From a virus: a stretch of DNA of 14,940 bases. Shown one piece after another: positions 1 through 14,940 of this stretch. The DNA is taken from positions 1-14,940 of IMG/VR virus record IMGVR_UViG_3300032225_000936. One strand, given 5' to 3'. The position numbers were made by a program, and so were the translations under genes. Below the pieces are notes generated by a model that was not told where the DNA came from, searched no databases, and worked only from the letters and a program-made list of their open reading frames with translations. How positions within the stretch are numbered: position 1 is the stretch's first letter; each line of letters starts with the position of its first letter.

Positions 1-123
1 AAATAGGCCCACGTGCTTATTTTAAGGGTTTATAGCACATAGGCATAATAATTTTGTTTTATTGTGGCTGTTTTGGCGTGTTGTTTAGTTATGAAATTCT
101 GTAAGTAAAAAAAGCTGTACCGG
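1..123. repeat. Left copy of an exact 123-bp terminal direct repeat (= 14818..14940); circular-closure overlap or short DTR
   Basis: Base-by-base comparison by eye: aaataggcccacgtgcttatttt...aaaaagctgtaccgg occurs at both window ends. It contains the last 35 nt of the fibre gene, a 76-nt intergenic spacer and the first 12 nt of the portal gene. Confidence 0.95.
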
Positions 124-1414
124 CAGCATTTAATCTAGTTGAAAATCGGGCTGACGTTAATGGTGAAATAGTAGCGCTTCCTGTTGATCCACTTGGCGCA
201 TTATTATTAGTGCCTGACGTTAAAGTAATTGTTCCAGCACCGCCATTTATGTAAGTCCAGTCAACGCAAGCATTGACACCGCCTAACCAAACACCAGTGG
301 CACTCAAACTAGAAAATGACGGTAAAGACGTATTTTGCGCTCCGCTAGGTGACGACGTTACCCACTCACCTAATAATTGTGCGGCTGTAATTGATGTAGT
401 TACGCCGGGCGGTACCGCTCTAAGGTTATATTGGGTCCCGGACTTTATAGGATTACTTACTGTTGGGTTTGTATCAGTTACAACGACTGTACCTGTCCCA
501 GTTATTGTTTGTAATTTGCCAGTTGTTACGGTATTTGCTGTTAAATTGGCGCCGTCTAAAACGGTTAAACCGGTTGTAACGCCTGTACCGCCTTTAGTGG
601 TGTCAATAGTTGACGCGTCATTAAGTAAAATACCCGTGGTCGTTGGTAATGTGTGGTTACTTGTGCCTGAGCTACCTTTAATTAGTTGTACGCCAGTTGT
701 GTTAGTTATTGCGATTGAACCGCCAGCATTTCCCGACGCGCCTAAAGTCAAATTTCCATTACTCGAAACATTTATTCCATTACCAGTACCACTAACCGTA
801 ATTGAACCATTACTTACAGATAAACCAGTACTAGGTGCTGAACCACCCGGACCACCAACACCCAAACCCTGCGCATAAATTCCGCCATTGATGTTATAAC
901 CAACAAAAGAATTAGCTAATGATGAGCCGTTAGTTTCGGCCATAGGTGAACGCTGGGACCAATTAGTAGCGTCATTATTCGGCGTCGTTGTGCCTGAGCC
1001 GTCATTTCTGCGTATGTAGTAAATTAGGGCGTACGTTACATAGTCGCCTTTTGCGTAAGTTCTGCCAGATACCCAGTCGCTGGCCGCAGCTGTTGAGTCT
1101 CCACCGGTGGCGCCTGTATCACCCTTAGACGCTGTTAAAGTCCAATGGGTAGGGTCAGCCGACGGGATTGTTGAGCTAGTGACGGCCAAAATACACACAT
1201 AAGTTGAGCCATTATAAACAACAACGTCATAAGGTAAATAACTTGTATTTATTACCCAAGCGTTTCGGTAGTTAAAACCTTGACCGGGTGCGCCTGCTGA
1301 ACCACTATCACCTTTTGGCCCAGAGATACCGGCTATTTGTTCGCTAATAATTACTGGGCTTTCAGTAATTGCAAGGTCTGTAATGTTGTCTACGACGCTA
1401 ATTATAAAACTCAT
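89..1414 (-). CDS. Tail fibre / receptor-binding protein with a collagen-like segment and two CBM5/12-like motifs
   Basis: 441-aa ORF with an ATGA start/stop overlap to the upstream gene. It has an N-terminal G-X-Y run (GISGPKGDSGSAGAPGQG). Two W..Y..(G)D.V.Y.....P....W motifs follow (NAWVINTSYLPYDVVVYNGSTYVC...PTHW and SDWVSGRTYAKGDYVTY...ATNW). The rest is a long G/S/T-rich region typical of phage fibres. Confidence 0.75.
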   Translation of the reverse strand: MSFIISVVDNITDLAITESPVIISEQIAGISGPKGDSGSAGAPGQGFNYRNAWVINTSYLPYDVVVYNGSTYVCILAVTSSTIPSADPTHWTLTASKGDTGATGGDSTAAASDWVSGRTYAKGDYVTYALIYYIRRNDGSGTTTPNNDATNWSQRSPMAETNGSSLANSFVGYNINGGIYAQGLGVGGPGGSAPSTGLSVSNGSITVSGTGNGINVSSNGNLTLGASGNAGGSIAITNTTGVQLIKGSSGTSNHTLPTTTGILLNDASTIDTTKGGTGVTTGLTVLDGANLTANTVTTGKLQTITGTGTVVVTDTNPTVSNPIKSGTQYNLRAVPPGVTTSITAAQLLGEWVTSSPSGAQNTSLPSFSSLSATGVWLGGVNACVDWTYINGGAGTITLTSGTNNNAPSGSTGSATISPLTSARFSTRLNAAGTAFFTYRIS

Positions 1415-1752
1415 TGTGTAACCTGTGCCTGTACGCTAAAAGTACCTTGAACCAAACGGACTACATAGGTACCGCTAGTTAATTCCAAATCGTACAAGTA
1501 GTTACCCTCTTTTATGGCGCCTGTTTGGGCTGCCGTCGCAACAATAGAAACTTTGCCGTCATTTGTAAGCGCGGTTATACCTGATCCTGTTGCAAGGGTT
1601 AAAACTGGCGCTGTATCTGCGTAACGCCTAACCTGCATTTTGGCCGTGTAGCCTGTCCAATTTACCGCCGTACCATTATTGGTAGCTGTAAAAGTTTTAT
1701 CTAACGTGGCGCCCTGAAAACAGACTATTTCGTATTCGGCTGGTGTAAGCAT
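1411..1752 (-). CDS. Hypothetical virion-associated protein (beta-rich), coupled to the fibre gene
   Basis: 113-aa ORF starting 9 nt after the TerL stop. Its TGA overlaps the fibre ATG (ATGA). The sequence has the alternating pattern of a beta-sandwich (YTAKMQVRR...GNYLYDLEL...GTFSVQAQV). No recognisable catalytic motif. Confidence 0.7.
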   Translation of the reverse strand: MLTPAEYEIVCFQGATLDKTFTATNNGTAVNWTGYTAKMQVRRYADTAPVLTLATGSGITALTNDGKVSIVATAAQTGAIKEGNYLYDLELTSGTYVVRLVQGTFSVQAQVTQ

Positions 1753-1761: not shown

Positions 1762-3219
1762 TTATACCACACTAATACCAACGGTGGCTTTAGGTGTTGC
1801 CGCGTGTCCAAGTGCCATAGTAAAAGCTACGGCGGCGCTAATGTCTTGTACGGCCGCTTTTCGGGCTATTCGCCAGCCACCGTCACTACTTGGGCGACGT
1901 GCGCAAGCCGCTAAATGTGTTGCTAATACATCTTGTCCCGGGTGAATAATTAGCCCAGCGTTCATACTACTTAAAGTAATGTCGCAATAGGTACTAAATG
2001 CGGTGCTAGCCCAAGCGGTAGGCGCCACCGGTACACCGACTTTCGCTAAATGTGGGGCTATGTGTCCAGCGGTTTTGGGGTCAAACGCTAAAGCCCTAGC
2101 ACTATACGTTCTAGCTAGGTGGGCAATATCGCCAGCAAGTTCCAAGTCATTTAGGCCGCCGTCCTTTTCCCAACGTGTCAGGAATACGGCGTATTTGTCG
2201 CCGCGCTTTTGTACCGCAATTAGAAAAGCAGCTGTACGCGTAAAATTAAGGTCAAGTCCGAAATAGGTTTCATACCCTGTTTCTAGTTGTAGTGTTTCGT
2301 CTAATCCTGCGTTAAATTCGTTTAAGTTGTAAGGGCTGTCTATGCTTTCAACCCACATACACAACATTTCCGTTTTAACCGCTTCCGGTGTATCTCTAGC
2401 TGCGGCGTCTTGTAAAGCGTCCAAACTAACGGTATGCCCAAGTGCTGGGTTAGCCGCTTGCCAAGCCTTAACGTCATCTACGGCACTATTTGGCGGTGCG
2501 CTCCACTCATACCACCCTAAACGTTGGCTTTCAAACGTTAAAGCCCTTGCCCTTAGATCATTTAATACCGTTGAATTGGCGTCACCAGCGTTCGAAGTTA
2601 TGTAGGTTTGCCCCGACGTCGCACGCGTTAATGGTGTTGCCGCGGTCCAAGCGTCCGCCTTAATTTCCCTAAGTTCGTCCACATAAAGTAAATCAGCTGT
2701 TGCGCCACGTGGCCCCTCGCTAGTTGCTGCCCTAATACCGTATTTGCGGATACGTTTACAAGGCCCGGCACACGCTTTAGGGTAATGGTGACAATAAATT
2801 TCTAATTCCTCTTGGCCGTTAGTACGCGAAACCCTTTTTATCCTTTTCATTAACCACGGCAAACTTTCCGCCATATCCACGACTTGCTTAAATGTATCTA
2901 ACGCCAGTTGTCTATTTTGGGCCATAGCCACTATTGAACCCTCACCAAAAATGTAAAGCCCGGCCAAAATTCTCATACGCATTAAGTGAGTTTTTCCCTG
3001 TTGCCGGGCAACCAACACACCACAAGTTTTACGCACATAAGCGCCGTTATTGTCAAGAGTTAAAGCGTCGTTAAGTACGTATTCTTGCCACGCCATAAGC
3101 GGCGCACCTAGATCACTTGCTAATTGACTTACTAACGGCCCTAGTGTTCGTCCGTTTAGGCTTGGGCTTGCTATTCGTGGGACTGATGAGCCGTAAATAG
3201 GCTTCGTTGTATTGTTCAC
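1762..3219 (-). CDS. terL: Terminase large subunit
   Basis: 485 aa. Walker A-like VARQQGKT, Walker B-like LLYVDEL and the nuclease-domain pattern FGLDLNF. The N-terminus (TLGPLVSQLASDLGAPLMAWQEYVLNDAL) resembles the conserved ..GP.v..la...G..L.pWQ lead-in of Terminase_1-type TerL. That favours the GTG start at 3219 over the ATG at 3096. The GTG start gives a 107-nt overlap with the upstream ORF. Confidence 0.9.
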   Translation of the reverse strand: MNNTTKPIYGSSVPRIASPSLNGRTLGPLVSQLASDLGAPLMAWQEYVLNDALTLDNNGAYVRKTCGVLVARQQGKTHLMRMRILAGLYIFGEGSIVAMAQNRQLALDTFKQVVDMAESLPWLMKRIKRVSRTNGQEELEIYCHHYPKACAGPCKRIRKYGIRAATSEGPRGATADLLYVDELREIKADAWTAATPLTRATSGQTYITSNAGDANSTVLNDLRARALTFESQRLGWYEWSAPPNSAVDDVKAWQAANPALGHTVSLDALQDAAARDTPEAVKTEMLCMWVESIDSPYNLNEFNAGLDETLQLETGYETYFGLDLNFTRTAAFLIAVQKRGDKYAVFLTRWEKDGGLNDLELAGDIAHLARTYSARALAFDPKTAGHIAPHLAKVGVPVAPTAWASTAFSTYCDITLSSMNAGLIIHPGQDVLATHLAACARRPSSDGGWRIARKAAVQDISAAVAFTMALGHAATPKATVGISVV

Positions 3220-3508
3220 TACTGTTTATTTCCTCAACCTTGCTACTGCTTTTATCTCTTGCAAGCGGTGTAAGTTTTAACTCTTTTAACAGGCTTTCAA
3301 ACTTGCTAACTAGGCTGGCAAGCTTGTCCAAGTCCTCGCCACTATCCAAAATTGCGTCAATAAGTATTGCTAACCGCTGGGCCATACATACGGCGGCGCT
3401 GTCGGCGTCGGTAATCCATTGTGACGCTGCCTGTAAAGAGTTCCCCATTTTGTCAGCAATAGCGCCGGGTGAAACTGGTTCAATGCTGGGTGTAATTGGT
3501 TTAGCCAC
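3113..3508 (-). CDS. terS: Terminase small subunit (P27/Terminase_4-like)
   Basis: The ORF is open from a TTG at 3586. The best-supported start is GTG 3508, with AAAGG 6 nt upstream, lying 2 nt after the HNH stop. The helical protein ends with the ..LKELKLTPLAR.. motif typical of P27-family small terminases. It sits between HNH and TerL. Confidence 0.65.
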   Translation of the reverse strand: MAKPITPSIEPVSPGAIADKMGNSLQAASQWITDADSAAVCMAQRLAILIDAILDSGEDLDKLASLVSKFESLLKELKLTPLARDKSSSKVEEINSSEQYNEAYLRLISPTNSKPKPKRTNTRAVSKSISK

Positions 3509-3510
3509 GG

Positions 3511-3810
3511 TTAGCCTTTGGCCGTTGGTGGGTCGAATCGGAGCGTCGGGGAGAGAGAACAGAAGGGAGGGGTCTGGGGTGTCCAATCCTTAGAAAAAAC
3601 CGTATGCTTATCAGATTTGGCCCGGTTACAACGCCTACAAGCTGCGACTAGGTTGGTATGGTCATTAGTTCCACCCTTTGCTACTGGTATTACGTGGTCT
3701 ACCTCTGTTGCTTCGTCTCCACAATAGTTACAAGTTCTTGCGTCGCGTCTAAGTATTTGTTCTCGTACTGTTCGCCAAGCGCGGCTACTACCGTTGCGTT
3801 TACTTGTCAT
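3511..3810 (-). CDS. HNH endonuclease (terminase-associated)
   Basis: 99 aa with CNYCG...DHVIPVAKGGTNDHTNLVAACRRCNRAKSDK, i.e. the two CxxC pairs and the His/Asn/His core of the HNH motif. It lies directly upstream of TerS/TerL, as in HK97-like cos phages. Confidence 0.9.
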   Translation of the reverse strand: MTSKRNGSSRAWRTVREQILRRDARTCNYCGDEATEVDHVIPVAKGGTNDHTNLVAACRRCNRAKSDKHTVFSKDWTPQTPPFCSLSPTLRFDPPTAKG

Positions 3811-4108
3811 AGTTTGGGTCTAACTCTTTTAATAGGTTTGTTAGTGCTTCGTGATATCTGTCTATTTGGTCTATTAGTTCGTCTAGGTGATCTATTAGTT
3901 CTGTTACTAGTTTTTCGTTTTGTGGCTTTTCCATTGTTTTGGCTTTCGTTATGCCCGGTAAGGCTTGGGTGGGCAGAGCAAGGCCTATTGTTAAGCCTTG
4001 CCCCAGTTTTGCCCGTATAAGGGTGGTTTGGGTTTTCGCAAGGGTCCGTATGGACAATAGCGCCGTGTAATTAGGCGCACTTGTTGTTGTATGGGCTATT
4101 CGGTTCAT
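3800..4108 (-). CDS. Small acidic coiled-coil protein; start uncertain (ATG 4108 or more likely ATG 3934)
   Basis: The C-terminal 44 aa (MEKPQNEKLVTELIDHLDELIDQIDRYHEALTNLLKELDPNYDK) look like real coding sequence and overlap the HNH start by 11 nt. The N-terminal 58 codons are T/L/A-rich and low in complexity. They coincide with inverted repeats and a promoter-like element, so they may be non-coding. Confidence 0.5.
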   Translation of the reverse strand: MNRIAHTTTSAPNYTALLSIRTLAKTQTTLIRAKLGQGLTIGLALPTQALPGITKAKTMEKPQNEKLVTELIDHLDELIDQIDRYHEALTNLLKELDPNYDK

Positions 4109-4303
4109 ACAATCACGCCTAATTTCTACTCTGTTTAGAGTCTGTTTGTCTGGTAAGCAGCCAGACTAAGTAACGCCCTCAAACGGCGGTTTAACCTAGT
4201 GCTAGTAGGTCAGACTGTTATACTTAGTCCTAAAGTTGGTAACTTGGGGAAGCTGCCGCACTATTTAGGTCCAGTCGTGGTGGCTGGGCCTTTATAGTTT
4301 CGG

Positions 4304-4531
4304 TTACTTGCCGGTTTTCTTTTTTACTATCTTTTCTGCCTTTTCACAAGCAAGACACGACTTGTCTAACGCATACACCCAGCTACCGCATTTATCGCAA
4401 CGGCCTAAAAGGTCTTGTATGTGATCTAATACCTTTTTTATTTTGGTATCTTGCTTGGGGTTGTCAGCTACTACACGTTGCCTAAGTTGTAATAATGCTG
4501 CGGTATAGCCTGCGTCGTATTCATTCGTCAT
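4304..4531 (-). CDS. Small zinc-ribbon protein (CxxC...CxxC), function unknown
   Basis: 75 aa containing CDKCG...(12)...CLAC and a lysine-rich tail. It is the last gene of the early module. Confidence 0.7.
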   Translation of the reverse strand: MTNEYDAGYTAALLQLRQRVVADNPKQDTKIKKVLDHIQDLLGRCDKCGSWVYALDKSCLACEKAEKIVKKKTGK

Positions 4532-4661
4532 TTGTAATAATTTTTCTAATAGTTTTGTTAACTATTGCTAATTCCTTGCGCAATTCTTTAATGGTATCCA
4601 CCAATTCCAGCGCCCAGCGTGCGTCTACATTTGAACGTTTTTGCAATTCGTCATAATTCAT
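4521..4661 (-). CDS. Small hypothetical protein (46 aa, helical), not in the supplied ORF track
   Basis: Translated by hand: MNYDELQKRSNVDARWALELVDTIKELRKELAIVNKTIRKIITNDE*. There is a GAGGA Shine-Dalgarno 4-5 nt upstream of ATG 4661. It fills an otherwise empty 149-nt gap and overlaps the next start by 11 nt. Confidence 0.55.
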   Translation of the reverse strand: MNYDELQKRSNVDARWALELVDTIKELRKELAIVNKTIRKIITNDE

Positions 4662-4680
4662 AAAATCCTCTGGAAAGTAA

Positions 4681-4866
4681 TCACTCATTATCGGGGCCCA
4701 GTCTTTCGCCGTGAATTGTTTGGGCTATTGTGGCGTTTTCCTCTAGCAATTTAACTAGCGACTGGTAAAGGCAGCTTGGGCAGAATTTGGCGCCTGCTAT
4801 TACGCCGTCCGGACAGGGCTGAGTATTGTCCCAAGCCCTAATAATTGCATCTCTTAAAGTAATCAT
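4681..4866 (-). CDS. Small hypothetical protein (61 aa)
   Basis: The track ORF starts at GTG 4875. ATG 4866 forms a TAATG stop/start overlap with the upstream gene and is preferred. It contains three Cys (CPDG...CPSC). No recognisable family. Confidence 0.6.
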   Translation of the reverse strand: MITLRDAIIRAWDNTQPCPDGVIAGAKFCPSCLYQSLVKLLEENATIAQTIHGERLGPDNE

Positions 4867-5525
4867 TAGTTCCACGCACTTTCTGGGTCTGGGTTATTTG
4901 GTTTCTTGCCTGCGACGTATCCAGCCGCCTTTAATTCCTCAATAAGTTTTGACGCGTTATAACTGTCTAATTTTTCGTCTGGGCTTATTCCTAAACGTGC
5001 CTTGTATTCGTCTACGTAAGCGGTCATAGCGCTAAAAGAATAGTTAAACAACGACTTTATGAGTCCGTATTGCTTTTCTGTCATTTCTTTTAGGCCGTAG
5101 TTTCCACCGGTCAAGGCTTTACTTGTGTCTGGTAGCGGTATACGGTCCGTTGGCACTCCCCAAGCTTCGGTTTCTGGTTCTTGTCGTGCTTGCGCGTTTT
5201 CTACCTCTTGCTTGGTGGCTATTGACTTACCTAAACCAATACCTAAAGCACCAATGGCGCGGCCCCAAGCCGACGTTTCAAGGTTCATTAGTTCGCTGCC
5301 ACGTGTGTAAGTTGTTTTACCCTCTGCAAGTTCGGCAGCTGTACCAATACCGGGCCTAACGTCGTCTGGTGTTCGGTAAGCGTAGGCCACTCCCCAAATG
5401 TATAAGTGGTTATGATCCATAACGCCGCGGTATTCAAATTGAATACTCCCAGTAGGAAAGGCCTTGTAAAACTCTTGTAAACGCTCTTTAACGTCTACAT
5501 AGTCGCCTAAATTAAAGCCGCTCAT
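4866..5525 (-). CDS. Putative ssDNA-annealing / ssDNA-binding protein (Rad52/Sak-like)
   Basis: 219 aa with an ATGA overlap to the upstream gene. The segment NLETSAWGRAIGALGIGLG resembles the E-[TS]-x-A-x-x-R-A-x-x-x-x-G-[IV]-G helix of Rad52/Sak-type phage annealing proteins. This was recognised by eye only. Confidence 0.4.
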   Translation of the reverse strand: MSGFNLGDYVDVKERLQEFYKAFPTGSIQFEYRGVMDHNHLYIWGVAYAYRTPDDVRPGIGTAAELAEGKTTYTRGSELMNLETSAWGRAIGALGIGLGKSIATKQEVENAQARQEPETEAWGVPTDRIPLPDTSKALTGGNYGLKEMTEKQYGLIKSLFNYSFSAMTAYVDEYKARLGISPDEKLDSYNASKLIEELKAAGYVAGKKPNNPDPESAWN

Positions 5526-5902
5526 AGTCGGCCCTCGCGCTCTAAACGATAAATCCGCATTTTAATGCCTTGATAATTTCGGCCTAATTGTTCTGCTAAT
5601 TGTTCAAAAGTCATATGGCCTTTTGAGTGTCCATAAATTAGGGCTAAATCGTCTTTACGTGTCCATTTGCGGTTAGTGTATTTACCTTTTGCAGGTTTTA
5701 CCTTTTCTGGCGCTGGTTCAGCTGGAAACAACGAAAGTAGAGTGGCGTTAGTATCTTTTGCTAATTGTGCGACTTGTGGCGCCTGTGTTGGTTCTGTTTC
5801 TGTTTCAGCTGTTGGTACTTGGGCCATAAGTAGGCCTACAAGTACGCTAGGTGGTAATTGTTCTAATGTTTCCCTGTTTAGAGTTACTGTTATCTGTTCC
5901 AT
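5522..5902 (-). CDS. Putative DNA-binding protein (C-terminal Myb/SANT-like or HTH domain)
   Basis: 126 aa. The C-terminus (RKWTRKDDLALIYGHSKGHMTFEQLAEQLGRNYQGIKMRIYRLEREG) has the W..(E/D)D..L.....G..........L spacing of Myb/SANT-type helices. The middle of the protein is P/E/T/A-rich. Confidence 0.4.
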   Translation of the reverse strand: MEQITVTLNRETLEQLPPSVLVGLLMAQVPTAETETEPTQAPQVAQLAKDTNATLLSLFPAEPAPEKVKPAKGKYTNRKWTRKDDLALIYGHSKGHMTFEQLAEQLGRNYQGIKMRIYRLEREGRL

Positions 5903-5911: not shown

Positions 5912-6145
5912 CTAGTCCTTTATCCCTAGATCGCGACGAACGGCGTCGTCTATTGGTGTGTCTGAGTACGTACACTCTGGTTTGTTGTAAATCTTGTCGT
6001 AACTCCATAACATCAGCACAAAAGCGCCGCCAGTTATGAAAATTGTCTTAAATGGTGCATTGTCTAGCCCGGTTATTGCCATACCTAGCGTTATTGCTGC
6101 GCCTAAATGTGCTACGTGTAGCGCTTTTTTAATTGGTGTTGCCAT
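5912..6145 (-). CDS. Small membrane protein (two predicted TM helices)
   Basis: The track ORF starts at 6181. ATG 6145 is preceded by AGAGGAGCAGAAAAA, a strong SD at about 8 nt. The hydrophobic spans are HLGAAITLGMAITGL and IFITGGAFVLMLW. Confidence 0.7.
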   Translation of the reverse strand: MATPIKKALHVAHLGAAITLGMAITGLDNAPFKTIFITGGAFVLMLWSYDKIYNKPECTYSDTPIDDAVRRDLGIKD

Positions 6146-6311
6146 TTTTTCTGCTCCTCTTAGTTGCTGGCACTTCGACATCTACGTAATAACGGACTAT
6201 GCGCCCTTGCCGGTGGGTTTGTATTTTCCCAGCCTTTTCCCAGTTGGCTAAAGTGTTTTTAGTTACCTGTAAAAGGGCGCTAGCTTGCTCCGCTGTTAGT
6301 AGTTGTTTCAT
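6129..6311 (-). CDS. Excisionase/MerR-type helix-turn-helix DNA-binding protein; first gene of the early module
   Basis: 60 aa. LLTAEQASALLQVTKNTLANWEKAGKI......GRIVRY matches the Xis-family HTH pattern (lT..eaA..L.vs..Tl......G.i......Gr...y). Confidence 0.75.
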   Translation of the reverse strand: MKQLLTAEQASALLQVTKNTLANWEKAGKIQTHRQGRIVRYYVDVEVPATKRSRKNGNTN

Positions 6312-6355
6312 AGTCCCTACTTTAGTGGTATTGGGTTGAATTGTGTCAAGTTTGG

Positions 6356-6541
6356 TTAAAGTTTCGGCGTGTTGTTTTTATTTGCAAGTTCAGGATTAAG
6401 GAAACCCATTAGCCCAGCTACTACGGCGCCAACAATACTTCGATAATCTAAAGCAAATTGTGTAGCCTGCCAGGACGCAAGAAAAGCAACAAGGCCAAAC
6501 GCTACGGGTTTAGGTAAATTATTCATTTTCGTAACTTTCAC
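6356..6541 (-). CDS. Holin-like small membrane protein
   Basis: 61 aa with two hydrophobic segments (PVAFGLVAFLASW and IVGAVVAGLMGFL) and a polar, charged C-terminus. It has a GTGA overlap with the M23 peptidase gene and is the last gene of the late operon. Confidence 0.6.
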   Translation of the reverse strand: MKVTKMNNLPKPVAFGLVAFLASWQATQFALDYRSIVGAVVAGLMGFLNPELANKNNTPKL

Positions 6542-8614: not shown

Positions 8615-9849
8615 TATATGGCTACCCTGTTTACATTTACCGTACCTGTCCTAATGCTTGACTGTTGCAAAAGGTTTTCAATAGTTCGGCGTGCGCTTTC
8701 AGCGTCCACTATGCCATTTAGGTTAATAACTGTTTGACGTCCACGTGCATACGATCCGCCGCCGCCACCGTTAGGCCTTGTGGGTGGTGGTGTATTACTT
8801 CCAAAAGGGTCACTAATTTTATTGCCTAAGTTATACCCAAAATTAAAGAATTTATTTATGGTGTTTAGGCCGCCTTTGATGTAACCAATAGCCGTAGCAA
8901 GTCCTCTAATGGCTGCGGCAACGTTATTTAATACGTCGGCTAGGGTCTGCATATTCTCTGCAAAAGTTTTAACTTGTCCATTGCCTTTAGTGGTAAATGC
9001 TTCAAATAAAAGTTTAATAGCTGTGCCAATTTCACCTATGGCTTTACCAATATTGTAAGCCGGACCTTTACCTTTACCGCCAGTAACACCGTCAATAATT
9101 TGCGTAAATGCTTTGGCAATTTTGGGCAAGTATTTTTCGGCTAAAGGTTGAAAAGCGGTTAAAATTGACGTACCGATAGTTTCTTTAGCTTCGTTAATTC
9201 GCTGTTTGAAAATGTCCATTTTGCCTGCGAGAGTATCCGCATTTGCGGCAGCGGCACCCCCAAACGTTTTACCCATAATTTTGGTTGCCGCGGTTAAATC
9301 TTTAGTCTTAATAATTGTGTCAGATAATGGCACACCAAGTTTTTTAAGTGCCGACAGGTTCCCATTTTGTGCGCGAGATAACGCCTGTGTCACGCTGTCC
9401 AAACTTTTACCGGTCCCGGCTGAAACGTCTAGCGCAAGACTTAATAAATCTTGGGCTTTTGTTACGTTGCCTGTGGCTCTGGTTAATCGTGCAAGGGCTG
9501 GGCGTAATTTGTCGTCAGCTATACCGTAAGCAAATTGGGTTTTGGTTATGTATTTTTCAACGGCTTTAACTTGCTTATCTGTCGCTTTTGTTGTGTTTTT
9601 AAGTGTTACTTGTAATTGCTTTTGACTTTTCTGGTCCTCAATGGCGGCTTTTACGGCGTCCACACCATAAGCGACGGCAAGTCCAGCAACGGCAACGCCA
9701 GCAAGTACGGCACTTTTGCCTATTTTTTTCATACTAGACGTTATGGAACTACTAAATGAATTAGTTTGGCCAGACGCTTTTTTAAGGCCTTTACTGAAAT
9801 TGTCCGTATCAGCTAATAAATTGAGTTTAAGCGTTCTAATGTTTGCCAT
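8614..9849 (-). CDS. Tail tape measure protein
   Basis: 411 aa, largely helical and A/K/L/T-rich, with a hydrophobic segment (AVLAGVAVAGLAVAYGV) and a glycine run near the C-terminus (PNGGGGGSY). It sits downstream of the chaperone. Confidence 0.85.
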   Translation of the reverse strand: MANIRTLKLNLLADTDNFSKGLKKASGQTNSFSSSITSSMKKIGKSAVLAGVAVAGLAVAYGVDAVKAAIEDQKSQKQLQVTLKNTTKATDKQVKAVEKYITKTQFAYGIADDKLRPALARLTRATGNVTKAQDLLSLALDVSAGTGKSLDSVTQALSRAQNGNLSALKKLGVPLSDTIIKTKDLTAATKIMGKTFGGAAAANADTLAGKMDIFKQRINEAKETIGTSILTAFQPLAEKYLPKIAKAFTQIIDGVTGGKGKGPAYNIGKAIGEIGTAIKLLFEAFTTKGNGQVKTFAENMQTLADVLNNVAAAIRGLATAIGYIKGGLNTINKFFNFGYNLGNKISDPFGSNTPPPTRPNGGGGGSYARGRQTVINLNGIVDAESARRTIENLLQQSSIRTGTVNVNRVAI

Positions 9850-9853: not shown

Positions 9854-10378
9854 TTACCATTTCTTTTTAATAATTTTATCCATTGTGGCTAAGAAATCGC
9901 GCCTAATTTGTGGTTGTGCTTTTCTTAGTGTTGGAAAGATAAAGTAACCGCGGCTTCCTGACTTGAAACGGCCAGAATAAGCCGGGAATTTACATCCGCC
10001 TTCTGGAAAAGTATTAGGTCCGGGCTTTACCGCGCCAAACTCTGTACCAAATAATAATTCGCCATAAGTGGGTTTAGGGTTATTTGGTGTTGCCTTACGA
10101 CTAACTGGCGCTTTACGCGCTCCACCAACGGTAATACTGGGTACACGATCCTTATTTGCTTTTAGGCTTCGGGCTACCATTTGGGCTTGGCGTGGGTTAG
10201 GTGCGTATACGGCGGCGTGCTGTATCTTTTGCACAAGGTTACCCACCATACGCTTATTATTTTTACGTAATTGTTCTTGGGCTTCCTTAGGCATTGTGCG
10301 AAACGCTGCCATAAGGGTTTCGTAGTCCTCTTGGTCTAATTCGACTTTAACTGTTATTCGGTCTGCACTATTCGGCAT
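9854..10378 (-). CDS. HK97 gp10-family-like head-tail joining / tail completion protein (atypical position)
   Basis: 174 aa. The layout ..ELDQEDYETLMAAFRTMPKEAQEQLRK....LVQKIQ...(insert)...YGELLFGTEFG.....FIFPTLRKAQPQIRRDFL..MDKIIKK follows the gp10-like pattern (l..l......lr.a.......i...a......EfG.......pfl.pa). Confidence 0.45.
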   Translation of the reverse strand: MPNSADRITVKVELDQEDYETLMAAFRTMPKEAQEQLRKNNKRMVGNLVQKIQHAAVYAPNPRQAQMVARSLKANKDRVPSITVGGARKAPVSRKATPNNPKPTYGELLFGTEFGAVKPGPNTFPEGGCKFPAYSGRFKSGSRGYFIFPTLRKAQPQIRRDFLATMDKIIKKKW

Positions 10379-10741
10379 TTTCCAATAACTCCCAAGCGGT
10401 TTTTAGGTCTGTCATACTCCAAGTTTTTAAGTCTTGTAATGGCAAACCTGTGTTTATTGCTAAATCTACAAGGGCGCGGCTTACGCTTCCTTGTCTATGG
10501 CTTTTGGGAAATCGTCTAGCACCTCAAAATTGGCTAGAGTTTTTACCCAGTCTTTATAGTCTTTTGCGGTTTCACTAGCTAGCCATAAAGCGTAAGTTAT
10601 TACTTTCGTACTTCCGTCGGCTATTTTGTCTTGTGCTTGGGATACGGTTAGGCCTAATTCGTCCTCTAACCGTACCCAAATCCAAGCCTGATCTAGGTTT
10701 ACCGTCGTTTCGGTATTTGCGTTATTTAGTTTGACTTTCAT
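10368..10741 (-). CDS. Candidate -1 frameshift product of the chaperone gene (gpG-T-like, 124 aa)
   Basis: The slip site is C_CCA_AAA (10508..10502). The -1 frame has a TGA 6 codons upstream of the site and no plausible start of its own. It stays open for 44 codons (SHRQGSVSRALVDLAINTGLPLQDLKTWSMTDLKTAWELLENAE*). It ends 11 nt inside the next gene, filling the 102-nt gap. Confidence 0.5.
10481..10741 (-). CDS. Tail assembly chaperone (gpG-like), zero-frame product
   Basis: 86-aa acidic protein between the major tail protein and the tape-measure region. It contains a slippery heptamer 6 codons before its stop. Confidence 0.6.
   Translation of the reverse strand: MKVKLNNANTETTVNLDQAWIWVRLEDELGLTVSQAQDKIADGSTKVITYALWLASETAKDYKDWVKTLANFEVLDDFPKAIDKEA
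10502..10508 (-). promoter_or_regulatory. Candidate -1 programmed ribosomal frameshift heptamer CCCAAAA (X_XXY_YYZ)
   Basis: In the zero frame this reads TTC CCA AAA GCC, so C_CCA_AAA fits X_XXY_YYZ exactly. Confidence 0.45.
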
Positions 10742-10761: not shown

Positions 10762-11175
10762 TTAGGACTTGGTGACGGTTCCGCCAGCAATTTTAAACGT
10801 TAGTGTTGTTGTTAGTGCGTCGGTGCTTGCGCCACCTACGTTTGGCTTTTCTGGGTATACGTTGCCGCTAAATGTTTTGCCACCTGTTTTGGTTAGGAAA
10901 CTGAAAGCAAGTACGGTATTTGGTGCGCTGGCCGCTGCCGCGTAAAGTGCGTCACAGACTGACGCTGTACCGGTGCCGGTGCTGTCCCAGTCCTGATAAA
11001 GTTCAACGGTTAGCGTGGCGTCGGTGCTAATGTAAACGTCTGTTTGGCCGCTAATTGGTTCAAGTGTTGCGCGGTTAATGGTTTCTGCCAGTAGTACGTT
11101 ACTAGCTACGTCCTTGTAAGCGACGCCGCCAATAGTGATAACTAGGCCCTTGCCTGTTGTAAATTCTCTTGCCAT
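10762..11175 (-). CDS. Major tail (tube) protein
   Basis: 137 aa and beta-rich, with a strong SD (TAAGGAG, 8 nt spacing). It lies between the tail-terminator-like gene and the chaperone. Confidence 0.65.
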   Translation of the reverse strand: MAREFTTGKGLVITIGGVAYKDVASNVLLAETINRATLEPISGQTDVYISTDATLTVELYQDWDSTGTGTASVCDALYAAAASAPNTVLAFSFLTKTGGKTFSGNVYPEKPNVGGASTDALTTTLTFKIAGGTVTKS

Positions 11176-11180: not shown

Positions 11181-11543
11181 TTACTCCTTAGTAATGAGTT
11201 GGGTTATAACTAGATCACTAGTTAAATATTCGGTGCTGCCTACTTCGGCGTTTGTTGGTTGTGAAAAGTCCCCAACACTAACCCAGTCTGGCAATTTGCT
11301 AAATACTGTTTCTATCATTTTTTCCAAGTTTACTAATGCCGCTTGGTTATCGTTGTTAATGACCATTAGTGTTACTTGAAAATTTGCTAACGTCGTTACG
11401 GAATTTACAATATTTACATACGGTGAACCCGGCACAATAACGACGGCTGGCGCTATCATTGTTTCGTTTGGGTAGGAATACACAGAGTAACCGCTACTTT
11501 TTAGAGCTGCGGCTAATGCTGTACGTGTTTTGGTTAAACTCAC
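11181..11543 (-). CDS. Tail terminator / tail completion protein (DUF3168- or gpU-like)
   Basis: 120 aa with a GTGA overlap to the connector gene. The pattern ..AL.....V.....E...AP.VVIVPG......(x)..F.V.L.V resembles DUF3168-type tail terminators. It sits just upstream of the tube gene. Confidence 0.5.
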   Translation of the reverse strand: MSLTKTRTALAAALKSSGYSVYSYPNETMIAPAVVIVPGSPYVNIVNSVTTLANFQVTLMVINNDNQAALVNLEKMIETVFSKLPDWVSVGDFSQPTNAEVGSTEYLTSDLVITQLITKE

Positions 11544-12106
11544 CCTACAAAACCGCCCATATTCATATACGGCGCCAATAAACCTAAAACCCTAGTTAGC
11601 AAACTACGGCCTAAACGGTGTGGCGCTGGCGTGAAATCTACCGATTGAATAGTGCCGCCTGGGCTTGTTCGCTGTTGAAAAATCTCAACGGCAACGGCTA
11701 AAGCGGCTTCGCGTACGGCTGGCACAAGGTCGTATAACGTCGTTTGGCTTGCCAATTTAACTTTTGCGAAAGGTTTAACTTTTTGTGTAACTAATTGTGC
11801 TTGTGTAAAAGTTACCTGAAACCACCTAATACCAATATCGGTTATGGTTTTGGTTCCATTAAAGTTGCCTGAAAGTCCACTAATAATAACGTTGTCGCCA
11901 ATGTTAAAACTGTGGTCTGTGTACGTGTAGTAGGTTATGACGTTTTTGTTATCTGCTTCGTAACCCCAGATACTAGAAACGTTGTAATCTAAAAGGCCGT
12001 CTACTAGCTGGTCTGCCGCGTCTGCTACTTGTTGCAACATTTCGTCAGGGTATAAAGTACCGACGCCAAGTGTTACCCTGAATTCGTCTAAATCTACTTT
12101 TGCCAT
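11540..12106 (-). CDS. Head-tail connector / adaptor (gp6-like) with extra internal and C-terminal segments
   Basis: 188 aa. The N-terminal helix (LDEFRVTLGVG...DEMLQQVADAADQLVDGLL) and a later helix (VPAVREAALAVAVEIFQQRTSPGG) match the gp6-like connector pattern. A beta-rich segment of roughly 85 aa lies between them. The SD is AAAGGA at 8 nt. Confidence 0.55.
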   Translation of the reverse strand: MAKVDLDEFRVTLGVGTLYPDEMLQQVADAADQLVDGLLDYNVSSIWGYEADNKNVITYYTYTDHSFNIGDNVIISGLSGNFNGTKTITDIGIRWFQVTFTQAQLVTQKVKPFAKVKLASQTTLYDLVPAVREAALAVAVEIFQQRTSPGGTIQSVDFTPAPHRLGRSLLTRVLGLLAPYMNMGGFVG

Positions 12107-12129: not shown

Positions 12130-12163
12130 GGCTGGCGGTTAGGGAACAGGCTAACCGCCAGCC
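12130..12163 (-). terminator. Perfect 13-bp stem / 8-nt loop hairpin directly after the capsid gene (attenuator or mRNA-stabilising stem-loop)
   Basis: ggctggcggttag (12130..12142) and ctaaccgccagcc (12151..12163) are exact reverse complements. The hairpin starts 14 nt after the capsid gene stop. There is no U-tract on the transcribed strand, so it is not a canonical intrinsic terminator. Confidence 0.5.
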
Positions 12164-12176: not shown

Positions 12177-13709
12177 TTAAGCGACGTTAAAGCGGCGTAG
12201 GCCTGCGGCACGCTTAATAATGGTTGCTAGGTAGCCGTGTAGAGAAACCTCAATTTGTAGAGAGTTAATCTGGTTTACCTGTAACATACGTGGCGCCTGT
12301 TCGTACACGCCGATTGAGTCAGGCGCAATAATGAAAGCGCTGTCGTCAATGGTTGTTGCAACCATAGCGTTATCTACGTATAGATCCAAGCCAAATACGT
12401 TACCGCGGTTTGAACCTACGGAAACGGTTCCGCCTGCGTTTTGTGGCATAGCGGCGTTAAAGATTGGGCGTCCTGTGCTGTCTGCTGCGTTTAGTAGCAA
12501 TTCCCATTGTGACGCGCCAGCAACGTAAGCGTTAGCAAAATTGCCTGTGCCTGCGTATGCTGCCACGGCTTCCTTACTTGCGAAAGCCTGCAAACCTGCG
12601 ACGGTTGCTGCGGTTACGGTTGCCTGTGTACCGCCTGAAACAATAGCTGCGATTACGCCTGCGTTTGTTGCTTTAGCGTATGCGGCTACCATTTCGTTCA
12701 TTAGTTCGTTGTAAAACGTTGGGGTGCCTTGTAAGTCCAACAATTCAACGCTAAAAGTATTCATACCTGCGTACTTGACGGCGGTGCCAGTTAGGTAGGT
12801 TGATGTAATACCGGTTTCACTTGGTGCCGCGTTTTCCGCTGTTGTTGCAACGGTTGGGACGGTACCAATTTTAGGAATTGAAATGGTGTTACCTACGAAA
12901 CGGTGAGCGGTTGCGCCACCTAGTGCTTCGATAGTTGGGCGGCCAAACTTACGCTGTGCGCTTCCTACTACTTCGTTAAAGTATTCGGTTGGGTTAAAGC
13001 CCGGGTTGGTGCTTAGGGTGTCGTCAGCTGCCATAACGTACTGGCGGCTTTCGTCGTTGCCGCGTGCGGCTTTAATGGTGTGTTCTAGGTACGTTGCGCC
13101 GCTGTTGATTGGGCTACGTGGTGCGGTAAGGATAGGTGCTGCTGCCTGTACGACTGGCGCTGCGGCGGCTTCTACTTCCTCGATTGTTGCTTCTGACACG
13201 GTGGTTTTCTCCTCTTGTGTGTCGTCGGGTGTAGTTTCGGCCGCTACTTCTGTTTCGCTGGCCGCTACGTTTGTTACTTGCGCGTCGCTAAACGCGGGAC
13301 TGTGGACTAATGAAACTTCCACAATTCGGGCGGCGGTTACGTGCATAACTCCGTCGTTCATTGTGTAGTTGTCAATTTGGGCGCCAACACTTAGGCCGTC
13401 ACGTAAGCCGTCGGCGGCTTCTACAAGTGCGTCGCTTCCAGCTGTTGTATTGGAAACCTTAAAAGTGCCTGTAATTCCGCCGGGTGTTACCTGAAATTCG
13501 ATTGCTTTACCGATAGGGCGCTGTGCGTCGTGCTGTAATAGAAATTTAACCGGCTTAGGGTCTGGGCTTGTAATAGATCCCATTTCAAATACGACTGGGC
13601 CAGCCGACGTATTTCCAGTTTTACCAAAAGGCACTACTAGGCCTGTAATCTGTCGGGTATTTTCGTTTGCTCCCATAATGTGGGCAGCAAAAGTAATAAA
13701 TTTATTCAT
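12177..13709 (-). CDS. Prohead protease (HK97 gp4 / S78-like) fused to an HK97-fold major capsid protein
   Basis: A single 510-aa ORF. Residues ~1-150 carry protease blocks (FLLQHDAQRPIGKA, DGLRDGLSVGAQI, EVSLVHSPAFSDAQV). An acidic, Ala-rich linker covers ~150-205. Residues ~205-510 look like an HK97-type capsid protein (..YLTGTAVKYAGMNTFSVELLDLQG.PTFYNELMNEM..). The SD is AGAGGAAG. Confidence 0.85.
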   Translation of the reverse strand: MNKFITFAAHIMGANENTRQITGLVVPFGKTGNTSAGPVVFEMGSITSPDPKPVKFLLQHDAQRPIGKAIEFQVTPGGITGTFKVSNTTAGSDALVEAADGLRDGLSVGAQIDNYTMNDGVMHVTAARIVEVSLVHSPAFSDAQVTNVAASETEVAAETTPDDTQEEKTTVSEATIEEVEAAAAPVVQAAAPILTAPRSPINSGATYLEHTIKAARGNDESRQYVMAADDTLSTNPGFNPTEYFNEVVGSAQRKFGRPTIEALGGATAHRFVGNTISIPKIGTVPTVATTAENAAPSETGITSTYLTGTAVKYAGMNTFSVELLDLQGTPTFYNELMNEMVAAYAKATNAGVIAAIVSGGTQATVTAATVAGLQAFASKEAVAAYAGTGNFANAYVAGASQWELLLNAADSTGRPIFNAAMPQNAGGTVSVGSNRGNVFGLDLYVDNAMVATTIDDSAFIIAPDSIGVYEQAPRMLQVNQINSLQIEVSLHGYLATIIKRAAGLRRFNVA

Positions 13710-14829
13710 TTGGTGTGCTTCCTCTTGGTGCTAGGTCTTCCATTTGTCGGGCTTCGTCTATTGAAATTATTCCTGCGTCCAATAGTTTTACTATGGTGTC
13801 TACGCGCTCTGTTGGGTTTCCGCGTAGAAAGTCGTCCAGTTCAAACTCTACGTACTGGCCACGTGGGGTAATGTCGTCCTGACTTAGGCGGCTTTCCACT
13901 ACGTCTAAGTAAATGCGTAGGCTGAAATCTACAAGGCTTCGACGCTCTGCGGAAACGTTGCTATATGTGGCGCTGGCGCTTTCGGCGTTGATGTACCACG
14001 CTGGTATGCCTACGGCTCTGGCAATTTCGCTAGCCGTGTAGGCCCGGGCTTCCACTAGCTGTAATTGGGCGCTGTCGAACCCGACTATATCCAAGTTAAT
14101 TGGGCCCTCAACATAGGCGGTTGATCTAGTGCGGCGTGCTTGTTTGAAAGCGTTTAATAGGCTTTCTTTTTGGTCCTCTGGTAAATTCATACCTTCGTTG
14201 CGTAATACCATTTGCGGTACTGGTTCCATAGCCATACGCAAGGCTGCGTTTTCTAATTCAATAGCGGTTTTAATGGTTCGCCCAGCCCGATTAAGTAGGC
14301 CCTCGTCTGGTCCCCAAAATACAATTAGTGAGCCAATACCGTTAAAGGGTACGCCTACACCGTCTACGGTCCATTGTTGGATTACTTGGGTGTTTGGGTC
14401 TGTACGCATTGTTACGCGTGTTGGGTCTACACGTCGGCCGTTACTTATGCGCCCGTCCTCTAGTGTGACGCTTAAAACTTGTAAATAGGCGACGCCGTAG
14501 AATAAAAGGTCGTCCAATATCCAAGCCAGCGTATTTGATCGCGGTAATGCTGGGTCTGGCTGTTTGATAAATGGACGGTTAGGAATTTGTGTTTCGGTGT
14601 TTTCCTGATAAGTGGAAAGCGGCAGCGTAGCTATTGTTCCTGCAATAATGTTTCTGGCCCGGGCTATTGCCGGTACTGTCATAGCGTCAGCACGTGAAAC
14701 TAGGGCATAATTGGCCCAGCCCATATTATTTACGTACGGTTCTATTGTGTTGGATACGGCCGCGGTAACGTCAGCGTTACGCATAGGTGCTAACTCTGTT
14801 TGTAAACGAAATGCACTAAATAGGCCCAC
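13702..14829 (-). CDS. Portal protein (HK97 family)
   Basis: 375 aa with typical Phage_portal blocks (TVPAIARARNIIAGTIATLPL, FYGVAYL, SEIARAVGIPAWYI, FELDDFLRGNPTERVD, IISIDEARQMEDLAP). The GTG start at 14829 is the first possible start after an in-frame TAA and lies inside the terminal repeat. No SD is visible. Confidence 0.9.
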   Translation of the reverse strand: MGLFSAFRLQTELAPMRNADVTAAVSNTIEPYVNNMGWANYALVSRADAMTVPAIARARNIIAGTIATLPLSTYQENTETQIPNRPFIKQPDPALPRSNTLAWILDDLLFYGVAYLQVLSVTLEDGRISNGRRVDPTRVTMRTDPNTQVIQQWTVDGVGVPFNGIGSLIVFWGPDEGLLNRAGRTIKTAIELENAALRMAMEPVPQMVLRNEGMNLPEDQKESLLNAFKQARRTRSTAYVEGPINLDIVGFDSAQLQLVEARAYTASEIARAVGIPAWYINAESASATYSNVSAERRSLVDFSLRIYLDVVESRLSQDDITPRGQYVEFELDDFLRGNPTERVDTIVKLLDAGIISIDEARQMEDLAPRGSTPNE

Positions 14830-14940
14830 GTGCTTATTTTAAGGGTTTATAGCACATAGGCATAATAATTTTGTTTTATTGTGGCTGTTTTGGCGTGTTG
14901 TTTAGTTATGAAATTCTGTAAGTAAAAAAAGCTGTACCGG
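14818..14940. repeat. Right copy of the 123-bp terminal direct repeat (= 1..123)
   Basis: Identical to 1..123. This implies a 14,817-bp unit genome. Confidence 0.95.

Follow-up and report, generated by a model that had tools for sequence, protein, structure and literature searches.

A complete, self-closing 14.8-kb genome of an uncultured tailed phage with predicted cohesive ends beside its small terminase gene

We have analyzed a 14,940-nucleotide stretch of viral DNA (IMG/VR record IMGVR_UViG_3300032225_000936, positions 1 to 14,940), which is called the window throughout and which is one full turn of a complete, self-closing phage genome of 14,817 bp followed by a 123-bp assembly overlap. 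Bases 1..123 are identical to bases 14818..14940, and comparison of the two window ends gives no longer exact overlap. The 14,817-bp unit has a G+C content (GC) of 45.6% and carries 25 genes with refined start sites, all of them located on the minus strand and together occupying 14,338 of the 14,817 bp, or 96.8% (Table 1). The ATPase and nuclease of the large terminase subunit TerL, the portal, an HK97-fold capsid protein, a tape measure and a frameshifted tail assembly chaperone place the genome among the long-tailed Caudoviricetes. When this gene content is taken together with the DNA ends seen in relatives, we consider it very likely that the window represents the complete genome of an uncultured, probably lytic phage that has a long, non-contractile tail and packages its DNA from cohesive (cos) ends.

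Closure of the genome, which the original prediction proposed on the basis of the terminal identity, is borne out by a second contig. A look-up of the exact capsid protein found Joint Genome Institute (JGI) contig Ga0372598_1652960 (L003; sample 3300037994, ENA ERZ21844627; 14,904 bp), in which the identical 14,817-bp unit is present with zero mismatches to the window. This contig is broken at window position ~4799, has an overlap of its own of 87 bp, and crosses the sequence of window bases 1..123 once, so that the 14940/1 junction, which had earlier been set as the test of closure, is read through by an independent contig. Because L003 has another break point, that of the window is arbitrary and the 123-bp repeat is a signature of assembly rather than a physical end. 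The minus strand carries every long open reading frame (ORF) that is backed by homology, as the original prediction had stated, and the long plus-strand ORFs are all nested in conserved genes. Given that these plus-strand ORFs show lower conservation than the sense frame in every case, antisense genes were rejected as candidates and the ORFs are regarded as shadow ORFs. Neither a tRNA gene (tRNA scan) nor an Rfam family (Rfam search) was found in the window.

Table 1. Genes and other features of the 14,940-nt window, in order of position
Feature	Coordinates	Strand	Size, evidence and remarks
Assembly overlap, first copy	1..123	.	Identical to 14818..14940; not a physical terminal repeat
Fibre-like protein	89..1414	minus	441 aa; Pfam CBM_5_12, E 1.5e-7 (aa 52-91)
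PHROG 1084 protein	1411..1752	minus	113 aa; PHROG 1084, E 7.5e-24; first gene of TerL-portal cassette
Large terminase subunit TerL	1762..3219	minus	485 aa; Pfam TerL_nuclease, E 5e-11; Terminase_6N, E 1e-4
Small terminase subunit TerS	3113..3508	minus	131 aa; GTG at 3508; Pfam Terminase_6, E 1.6e-8
HNH endonuclease	3511..3810	minus	99 aa; Pfam HNH, E 6e-14 (aa 27-68)
Predicted cos site	3555..3589	minus	Homology to ends of relatives, +-~2 nt
ORF	3800..4108	minus	102 aa; 52% identical in L004
Largest intergenic gap	4109..4303	minus	195 nt; upstream of 102-aa ORF, HNH and terminases
Three small early ORFs	4304..4875	minus	64, 55 and 75 aa; conserved in closest relatives only
Early protein	4866..5525	minus	219 aa; N-domain (aa 6-115) of predicted Rad52/Sak/ERF single-strand annealing protein-like fold
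Protein with C-terminal winged-helix/helix-turn-helix-like region	5522..5902	minus	126 aa; PHROG 323, E 1.7e-8 (aa 67-125)
Small protein, two hydrophobic segments	5912..6181	minus	77-89 aa; conserved in close relatives only
MerR-like helix-turn-helix DNA-binding protein	6129..6311	minus	60 aa; Pfam HTH_17, E 1.7e-6; MerR and MerR_1 weak
Intergenic gap, lysis/early	6312..6355	minus	Perfect TTGACA at 6349..6344; candidate early promoter
Holin candidate	6356..6541	minus	56-61 aa; follows lysin; hydrophobic segments
Endolysin, M23 peptidase	6538..6945	minus	135 aa; Pfam Peptidase_M23, E 1.4e-24
Putative small receptor-binding/minor tail protein	6945..7448	minus	167 aa; PHROG 13571 (virion structural), E 2e-4
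Tail tip/baseplate hub (Tal), predicted fold	7448..8614	minus	388 aa; AlphaFold2 and Foldseek
Tape measure	8614..9849	minus	411 aa; PHROG 991, E 7e-15, and six other tape measure PHROGs
Conserved virion protein	9854..10378	minus	174 aa; between chaperone and tape measure; in at least 48 loci
Tail assembly chaperone G/GT	10368..10741	minus	G: 86 aa (10741..10481)
Putative major tail (tube) protein	10762..11175	minus	137 aa; directly upstream of frameshifted chaperone
Putative head-closure or tail-terminator protein	11181..11543	minus	120 aa; position and family conservation
Putative head-tail adaptor	11540..12106	minus	188 aa; PHROG 5938 (connector), E 3.5e-4 (weak)
Perfect 13-bp G+C-rich hairpin	12130..12163	minus	In gap 12107-12176 after capsid gene; -27 kcal/mol (70-nt gap)
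S78 prohead protease/HK97-fold major capsid fusion	12177..13709	minus	510 aa; Pfam Peptidase_S78 (aa 17-151)
Portal	13702..14784	minus	360 aa; ATG at 14784; Pfam Phage_portal, E 5e-41
Assembly overlap, second copy	14818..14940	.	Exact identity

Pfam and PHROG profiles agree with the functions originally assigned to the HNH, TerS, TerL, portal, protease-capsid, tape measure and M23 lysin genes. The order at the packaging end of the genome, in which the portal had been thought to follow TerL, is HNH-TerS-TerL-[113 aa]-[441-aa fibre-like]-portal, so that two genes separate TerL from the portal. The 3' end of TerS and the start of TerL overlap by 107 nt (3113-3219) in different frames, both of which are conserved in relatives. 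Several gene boundaries differ from those in the JGI annotation of L003, which cut TerL to 444 aa, shortens the portal (340 versus 360 aa) and the hub protein (323 versus 388 aa), and leaves out the HNH gene. In relatives the TerL N-terminus is conserved from residue 5-9, and homologues also back the longer forms of the portal and the hub. A GTG at 14829 would give a still longer portal that extends into the repeat, and the alignments with homologues begin at residue 1-3 of the 360-aa form.

The 510-aa capsid protein matches the PHROG 2263 major head protein over residues 14-506 (E 5e-64), its homologues bear the capsid domains PF05065/PF25209, and its best tblastn matches are annotated as 'major capsid and protease fusion protein' in Arthrobacter phages of cluster AN. 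The hairpin downstream of this gene lacks a T-run and is thus not listed as a terminator; it is probably a stabilizer of transcript 3' ends or an attenuator. For the 188-aa protein, which is conserved across the family, Pfam Phage_connect_1 is found in two family members (E 0.016). One family member of the 120-aa protein matches a PHROG 'tail terminator' (E 0.002), and one family member of the 137-aa protein matches a PHROG 'major tail protein' (E 0.005). In the distant relative L208, the putative tube gene is present as two tandem copies (5355-5711 and 5779-6135). Searches of PDB sequences with family profiles of the 120-, 137-, 174- and 188-aa proteins were negative or gave noise, hhalign comparisons of family profiles with HK97 gp10, gp6 and tail terminator and with SPP1 gp16.1 were not significant, and members of the small virion protein families, when scanned against Pfam, PHROG and NCBIfam, gave weak hints only. 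As a result, the 'connector' named in the original prediction keeps weak profile support, and the 'terminator', 'tube' and 'holin' are positional assignments with no match above noise, to which hydrophobic segments can be added in the case of the holin.

The two genes between TerL and the portal form a cassette that is present in only part of the family (loci concerned: L004, L044, L054, L071 and L085), the cassette-free layout having the portal within ~200-300 nt after TerL. The 113-aa protein also matches PHROG 3304, 'L-shaped tail fiber protein assembly' (E 3e-12), and its homologues come from cyanophages, pelagiphages, and phages of Methylophilales, Limnohabitans and Streptomyces. Its 441-aa neighbor has a weak match to the tail fiber PHROG 5073, matches minor tail and tail fibre proteins over residues 25-93 in tblastn searches, and matches the chitin-binding domain of Chitinase A1 in a search of PDB sequences (E 0.0025). 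Only the N-terminal 44-152 residues of this protein are conserved in relatives, and the C-terminus is variable. The cassette may give rise to a fibre of the tail or of the head.

The tail assembly chaperone appears to be made by a classical programmed -1 frameshift of the G/GT type. A C_CCA_AAA heptamer at 10508..10502 precedes a -1 frame that is open to a TAG at 10370..10368; all 63 of the 63 distinct relatives share this heptamer, and a -1 extension of 43-49 aa is conserved in all but one of the relatives listed. On this conservation, the stretch 10379..10480 is read as coding. The original prediction had listed it among five gaps, the positions of which stand if the longest ORFs are used, and that part of the claim falls. 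If the portal starts at the ATG at 14784, the gap across the junction is ~121 nt (14785..14817 plus 1..88). The 174-aa protein encoded after the chaperone has no match in cultured-phage records (INPHARED GenBank; tblastn), PDB, Pfam, PHROG or NCBIfam; a resemblance of motifs suggests that it may be a tail-completion protein like HK97 gp10, although the hhalign comparisons with HK97 gp10 and SPP1 gp16.1 mentioned above were not significant. The tape measure also shows a weak match to Pfam TMP_2 and a hydrophobic segment near its N-terminus (residues 47-63), and no sheath-like family is seen among the matches obtained from Pfam, PHROG and NCBIfam.

The gene after the tape measure had been described as 'Dit-like', and structure prediction gives a different answer. 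The AlphaFold2 model of its 388-aa product, obtained using an alignment of 45 sequences, has a mean predicted local distance difference test score (pLDDT) of 83.6 and a predicted template-modelling score of 0.83. Foldseek finds 61 PDB matches to this model at E<=0.001, the best being to baseplate hubs, VgrG, Mu gp44, T4 gp27 and the 80alpha baseplate (E 4e-15 to 1e-10); a PDB sequence search with the single protein (7448-8614) was negative or gave noise. The model therefore has the fold of the Tal/gp27/Mu gp44 baseplate hubs and places the product in that class. A receptor-binding role is proposed for the 167-aa protein from the position of its gene after that of the hub. In a pooled scan of 46 sequences drawn from four gene families, which does not distinguish the family that gave the matches, six sequences match a PHROG 'minor tail protein' (best E 0.0014).

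The lysis genes consist of the M23 peptidase and the small membrane protein that is the holin candidate. The latter has no family match in Pfam or PHROG scans, and no spanin-like gene was seen in these scans or on reading the ORFs. Consensus scans of the window for promoters and terminators gave site counts no higher than those in shuffled sequence, and as these are at chance level they are not used as evidence. The largest intergenic gap, 4109..4303, is a candidate late promoter or regulatory region; L004 has a comparable gap of ~200 nt, the predicted fold is not unusual (z = -1.4), and no Rfam or tRNA match is present.

Among the early genes, that of the 219-aa protein is the best conserved (1,483 homologues). 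The N-domain of the AlphaFold2 model (pLDDT ~90) comprises a helix, three strands and a helix, and its top Foldseek matches in the PDB are 80alpha Sak, human RAD52 and yeast Mgm101 (probability 0.94-0.99, E 5e-3 to 5e-2, template-modelling score 0.3-0.4). Matches in BFVD to models named for ERF and Rad52/59/22 proteins extend from E 1e-5, for an 'Essential recombination function protein', to 2e-4, with a 'DNA repair protein Rad52/59/22' at E 7e-5. The fold is also shared by many BFVD proteins that are labelled 'uncultured Caudovirales phage'. On the strength of this predicted fold, the 219-aa protein is probably a single-strand annealing protein. Phages of Gordonia, Bacillus and Lactobacillus encode the same N-domain, and the gene context of the homologue in Gordonia phage Kuwabara is uninformative. 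Shorter homologues (P0251, P0256, P0262-P0264 and others) have PF25690, known from gp49 of mycobacteriophages L5 and D29, at the C-terminus. The PHROG 323 family matched by the 126-aa protein is annotated as 'transcriptional regulator, D5-like', and Pfam helix-turn-helix matches of that protein are weak. The 75-aa early ORF has CxxC...CxxC motifs resembling a zinc ribbon. The gene at 5912..6181, which overlaps the helix-turn-helix gene by 53 nt, could encode a holin partner or a superinfection-exclusion protein. Pfam, PHROG and NCBIfam scans of the window proteins detected neither a polymerase nor a primase or helicase, and replication must therefore, it would seem, rely on the host.

As to the identity of that host, we incline, with slightly better than even confidence, to a freshwater member of the Actinomycetota. 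A search of the literature by sample identifier found no statement of habitat, and several of the IMG sample numbers may be those of lake metagenomes. An actinobacterial host is the best guess because the phage is akin to actinophages, because relatives of its early gene occur in phages that infect Gram-positive bacteria, and because no spanin candidate was seen. Six family contigs have been placed in bins of metagenome-assembled genomes (MAGs), namely L085 (GCA_010022615.1 RGKS01000007.1), L206 (JBMTBW010000024.1) and L207-L210. The bins are assigned to Burkholderiaceae, Nanopelagicaceae, Actinomycetota, Acidimicrobiia, Pseudomonadales and Bacteroidetes, so that three of the six belong to the Actinomycetota. 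The contig in the Nanopelagicaceae bin has 46% capsid identity and a GC of 44.8%, and those in the Actinomycetota and Acidimicrobiia bins are both at ~71-72% GC. L209 and L210 have the same gene order as the window at 71-72% GC. A scan of GTDB genomes with the single capsid protein gave nothing, and a profile scan gave only free phage contigs in MAG bins. Since the binned contigs hold phage genes only and are free phage contigs, their bins reflect composition and coverage rather than integration.

The main alternative, which we think unlikely, is that the same phage infects a Gram-negative freshwater betaproteobacterium such as Polynucleobacter. What counts against an actinobacterial host is that the closest binned relative (75% capsid identity) lies in the MAG of a 'Burkholderiaceae bacterium', that other bins are those of Pseudomonadales and Bacteroidetes, with binning in part tracking base composition, and that a motif search finds no whiB in the window or in any family locus. 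Moreover, the GC of the window resembles the ~45% of Polynucleobacter, and homologues of the 113-aa cassette protein occur in phages of Gram-negative plankton. Against a host of the Polynucleobacter type, however, are the backbone genes and their order, which are common to actinophages, together with the N-domain of the 219-aa protein in phages of Gordonia, Bacillus and Lactobacillus, the lack of a visible spanin candidate, and the three Actinomycetota bins; the binning of a free phage contig is in any case weak evidence in either direction.

The physical ends of the genome were approached through the ends of contigs across family relatives, in place of read mapping. Among the first 80 IMG/VR relatives, 15 contigs begin exactly 333 nt upstream of the projected TerL start, with ~10 more beginning within 65 nt of this point, and in all of these contigs the start precedes a conserved TCTCCCC motif by 9 nt. 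When IMG/VR was scanned for the motif as a pattern, 105 distinct motif-bearing family sequences were obtained, and in 40 of them the start is at the exact same base, 9 nt before TCTCCCC. Five contigs with this start share a right end as well (...G(C/A)CAC, 15 nt after GCGTTTTTT), the lengths of these two-ended relatives being 14,737, 14,759, 14,828, 15,619 and 15,624 bp. In addition, Illumina adapter sequence is joined directly to phage ends, as CTTCCGATCT at bases 1-10 of L041 and as AGATCGGAAGA in the last 11 bases of L054, the right end of which thus carries 11 nt of adapter past the common end. Because adapter fusion happens only at true DNA ends, the ends of L041 and L054 mark true DNA termini. 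The adapter remnants in these two contigs also represent a contamination of public IMG/VR records. Contigs that span the junction have a single 14-nt sequence, CCACAGACTCCCTT, between the right and left ends. The absence of this 14-mer from both blunt ends is most simply explained by the removal of a 3' overhang in end repair, so that the overhang is probably ~14-15 nt long and of 3' polarity. This family of phages has cohesive ends between the HNH and TerS genes, as is shown by the contig ends of the relatives.

Alignment of the window to the site in these relatives, reading the minus strand, places the right end at ~3579 (...GGATTGGACAC), an overhang of ~15 nt at ~3578..3564 (CCCAGACCCCTCCCT), and the left end from ~3563 (TCTGTTCTC, followed by the conserved TCTCCCC at 3554..3548). 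By homology, then, the cos ends of the window genome itself would lie at ~3563-3579. The start of TerS in the window agrees with the JGI call in L003, and the corresponding ATG of relatives is ~60 nt from the left end. The HNH gene extends across this site, in that its catalytic domain (residues 27-68) precedes cos and its final ~20 codons run into the left end, the frame in the window stopping 3 nt before the TerS start at 3508. Among 49 distinct relatives that span the junction, 48 have an HNH frame that is open across cos and stops 51-60 nt into the left end. The tail peptide beyond cos is conserved in the spanning relatives (for example L020, L044 and L047), and third-codon variation in the HNH frame (GAY CCN CCM) suggests constraint at the protein level. 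Because the frame crosses cos, the gene would be split in linear virion DNA and complete only after the ends join.

Headful (pac) packaging, in which DNA would be circularly permuted and without fixed ends, is a highly improbable alternative to cos packaging. It would account for circular assembly with arbitrary break points in two assemblies, although cos phages are likewise expected to assemble as circles from reads of replicating or annealed DNA. The pile-up of ends, with 40 of the 105 sequences starting at one base, matching right ends and adapter on both ends, argues against it, and an HNH gene that adjoins TerS and TerL is the established HK97-type cos arrangement.

Family contig L044 (15,810 bp), which comes from a different family member, also has an overlap of exactly 123 bp. 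Equal overlap lengths across unrelated contigs are the trace that a de Bruijn assembler leaves on a circular path; both 123 and 87 have served as maximum k values in MEGAHIT assemblies. That the 123-bp repeat, exact as it is and lying partly within the fibre-portal intergenic region, is a true direct terminal repeat of a linear genome starting at window base 1 is scarcely credible, given that the identical genome in L003 breaks at ~4799 with an 87-bp overlap and crosses the repeat once, that the 123-bp overlap of L044 is what a fixed assembler k-mer gives, and that no relative ends at window base 1, the HNH/TerS site being the start of 40 contigs and the end of five; the family has its physical termini, as cohesive ends, beside HNH and TerS.

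Equally hard to credit is the idea that the window is a prophage remnant, a satellite, or a self-closing sub-fragment of a larger phage. The very small genome, in which no replication enzymes were found, is what favors this idea, but the full packaging, head, tail and lysis set speaks against it, as does the failure to find an integrase or host genes in the window. The refuting observations proposed originally, host flanking sequence and a larger parent phage, were looked for, and neither was found in the searches made. A megablast search of the whole unit against 50,697 phage records gave zero matches. Of 203 fetched family loci, none that spans at least 13 kb extends past the genes of the phage. 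For the capsid homologues listed, the longest contigs are mostly 14-16 kb, with a few of 17-19.6 kb. These findings argue against all three forms of the idea, as do the phage-only content of the MAG-binned contigs and the 14.7-15.6 kb lengths of the five relatives with both ends.

Our preferred reading, that of a complete, cos-packaging and probably lytic phage with a long non-contractile tail, has several observations to contend with. The lytic lifestyle is deduced solely from the absence of an integrase or repressor match. No Dit, an expected part of a long non-contractile tail, was recognized by sequence match in the other genes, among which the 120-, 137-, 167- and 174-aa proteins were not modelled, and for the 120-, 137-, 174-, 167- and 61-aa proteins, which the family conserves, the roles are positional or come from weak matches. 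The 219-aa protein has no PDB fold match at E<=0.001 and no Pfam or NCBIfam match even at E<=1, and a PDB sequence search with this single protein (4866-5525) was negative or gave noise. With respect to the ends, the end-bearing relatives have capsid proteins only 48-50% identical to that of the window, and closer relatives are junction-spanning contigs throughout, so that the ends of the genome in the window are placed by homology. Finally, L149 and L176 begin exactly at the first base of the 14-mer, which nevertheless fits the same boundaries.

If this reading is correct, the virion DNA is most likely linear, with cohesive ends at ~3563-3579, ~55 nt upstream of TerS and at the 3' end of the HNH gene. 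After injection, annealing of the ends would close the circle and restore the full HNH frame. Transcription would proceed in one direction, with the early genes, read from 6311 to 4304, supplying small DNA-binding proteins and the Rad52/Sak-like annealing protein. Replication would employ the host replisome, probably with recombination-driven formation of concatemers. The late unit would begin with the 102-aa ORF and HNH and continue through the two terminase genes to those for head, tail and lysis; the HNH, TerS and TerL proteins would then cut the concatemers at cos. The capsid protein would carry its own maturation protease as an N-terminal fusion, and the tail would be built from the small putative tube protein, the G/GT pair, the 411-aa tape measure, the gp27-like hub and the 167-aa putative receptor-binding protein. 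Lysis would follow from the M23 peptidase and the small membrane protein. Reads from annealed or replicating DNA would give rise to the circular assembly.

As to significance, the genome is a well-formed member of an already sampled group of ~15-kb metagenome phages and is no size outlier. A single genome of this kind adds little, given that the sequence is already public, that there are thousands of relatives, and that ~15-kb actinophages and freshwater phages have been described. Its value is that of a clean, closed reference for the minimal siphovirus plan, with 25 genes, no replication enzymes found, a protease-bearing capsid protein, a hub without a recognizable Dit, and a packaging nuclease gene that straddles cos. 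What the present analysis adds is the physical ends, the frameshifted chaperone, a hub in place of Dit, the Rad52-like early protein and the cos-straddling HNH gene. A broader claim, that the lineage consists of globally abundant, uncultured, near-minimal siphoviruses of streamlined freshwater Actinomycetota, for example Nanopelagicaceae (acI), with a trimmed design, is in our view doubtful. Were it true, the trimmed design would comprise the lack of a separate Dit, fusion of the protease to the capsid protein, and an HNH gene that is intact only after the ends are joined. To our knowledge, no acI phage has been isolated. Should an actinobacterium that is abundant in fresh water prove to be the host, the lineage would matter for lake bacterioplankton ecology, and it would provide a model for the fewest parts of a long-tailed phage and for a T=3 or T=4 capsid holding ~15 kb.

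Homologues of the capsid protein in public data number at least 4,986 (E<=1e-10) and are found mainly on 14-16 kb contigs; in IMG/VR, there are 454 loci. The family as a whole spans ~44-72% GC, and its loci of at least 13 kb have a GC of 44-51%. Among cultured phages, tblastn with the capsid fusion gives 104 records, mostly from Arthrobacter cluster AN, Microbacterium, Gordonia, Curtobacterium and Rhodococcus phages, in which the match is of ~40% identity and confined to the protease part, none covering at least 80% of the protein. Family profiles, on the other hand, match the portals of Toulouse and Penoan (E 1e-120 and 4e-114), their capsid fusions (E 1e-76 and 1e-102), the Toulouse lysin peptidase (E 2e-30) and Toulouse gp13, the hub (E 3e-7), and they also match TerL, HNH and Toulouse gp21 ('MerR-like HTH'). 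About eight of the 25 genes are thus shared with small actinophages at the profile level, with no nucleotide similarity, and the phage is therefore a distant relative that falls in no named cluster. The nucleotide similarity or shared gene content of at least ~35% that marks members of one cluster is not found between the window and small actinophages. As judged by these protein profiles, it belongs to a large lineage of moderate GC, seen only in metagenomes, that is distantly related to the small actinophages. The suggestion that it stands outside the high-GC actinophage clusters holds in this sense, with family loci at 44-51% GC, but it is not unrelated to them, being a distant relative with the same gene order.

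The original prediction also set the genome at the lower size limit for its architecture, and this is not the case. A set of 109 actinophages spans 14,270-19,679 bp, and the smallest of these, Rhodococcus phage RRH1 (14,270 bp), is smaller than the window genome, which is thus not the size minimum; the relatives of 14,737-14,828 bp and the thousands of homologues point the same way. For RRH1 and bIL311, a T=3 or T=4 capsid has been considered in the literature. In fresh water, 155 complete phage genomes below 15 kb have been reported, the smallest being 13.5 kb, together with a freshwater-specific peak in genome size near 15 kb (Kavagutti et al. 2019, Microbiome 7:135, PMC6802176). These 'miniphages' are, like the window, complete tailed-phage genomes of <15 kb, and they represent a size class rather than a lineage. 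Miniphages assigned to Actinobacteria were recognized by whiB (Kavagutti et al. 2019, PMC6802176), which is absent from the window and from the family loci examined.

Among cultured phages, the small actinophages come nearest. Phages of this type, such as RRH1, Gordonia cluster CW, the small Microbacterium phages and Penoan, resemble the window in having a genome of <20 kb and a single gene for the S78 protease and the major capsid protein, and differ from it in their high GC and in their cultured hosts, which are from soil or wastewater. Curtobacterium phage Penoan (15,303 bp) has the gene order of the window, with profile matches to its portal, capsid, TerL and HNH proteins. Cluster AN (genus Decurrovirus: Toulouse, 15,319 bp, Decurro and Maggie) is likewise of ~15 kb, and its order is that of the window, passing from small genes and TerS to TerL, portal, fused protease-capsid, adaptor, tube, chaperone, tape measure, hub, a ~170-aa protein, lysin peptidase, holin and HTH, with HNH last. 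No replication enzymes are annotated in Toulouse, and in many Arthrobacter phages the cohesive ends extend by 9-13 bases at the 3' side. Protein identity between cluster AN and the window is only 24-40%, however, and GC is 45.6% in the window compared with 60% in Toulouse and 68% in Penoan. The window differs in its fibre cassette between TerL and portal, in the gene for the 174-aa protein ahead of the tape measure, in an HNH gene that runs through cos, and in a lysin of a single domain. In cluster AN, the lysin is divided between two genes and one gene points leftward. With phage HK97, finally, the window family shares an HNH gene placed at the right end of the genome beside cos and TerS/TerL, an HK97-fold capsid and an S78 protease, but the HK97 genome is 39.7 kb long and has separate protease and capsid genes, in contrast to the fused gene of the window and the HNH frame that runs across its predicted cos site.

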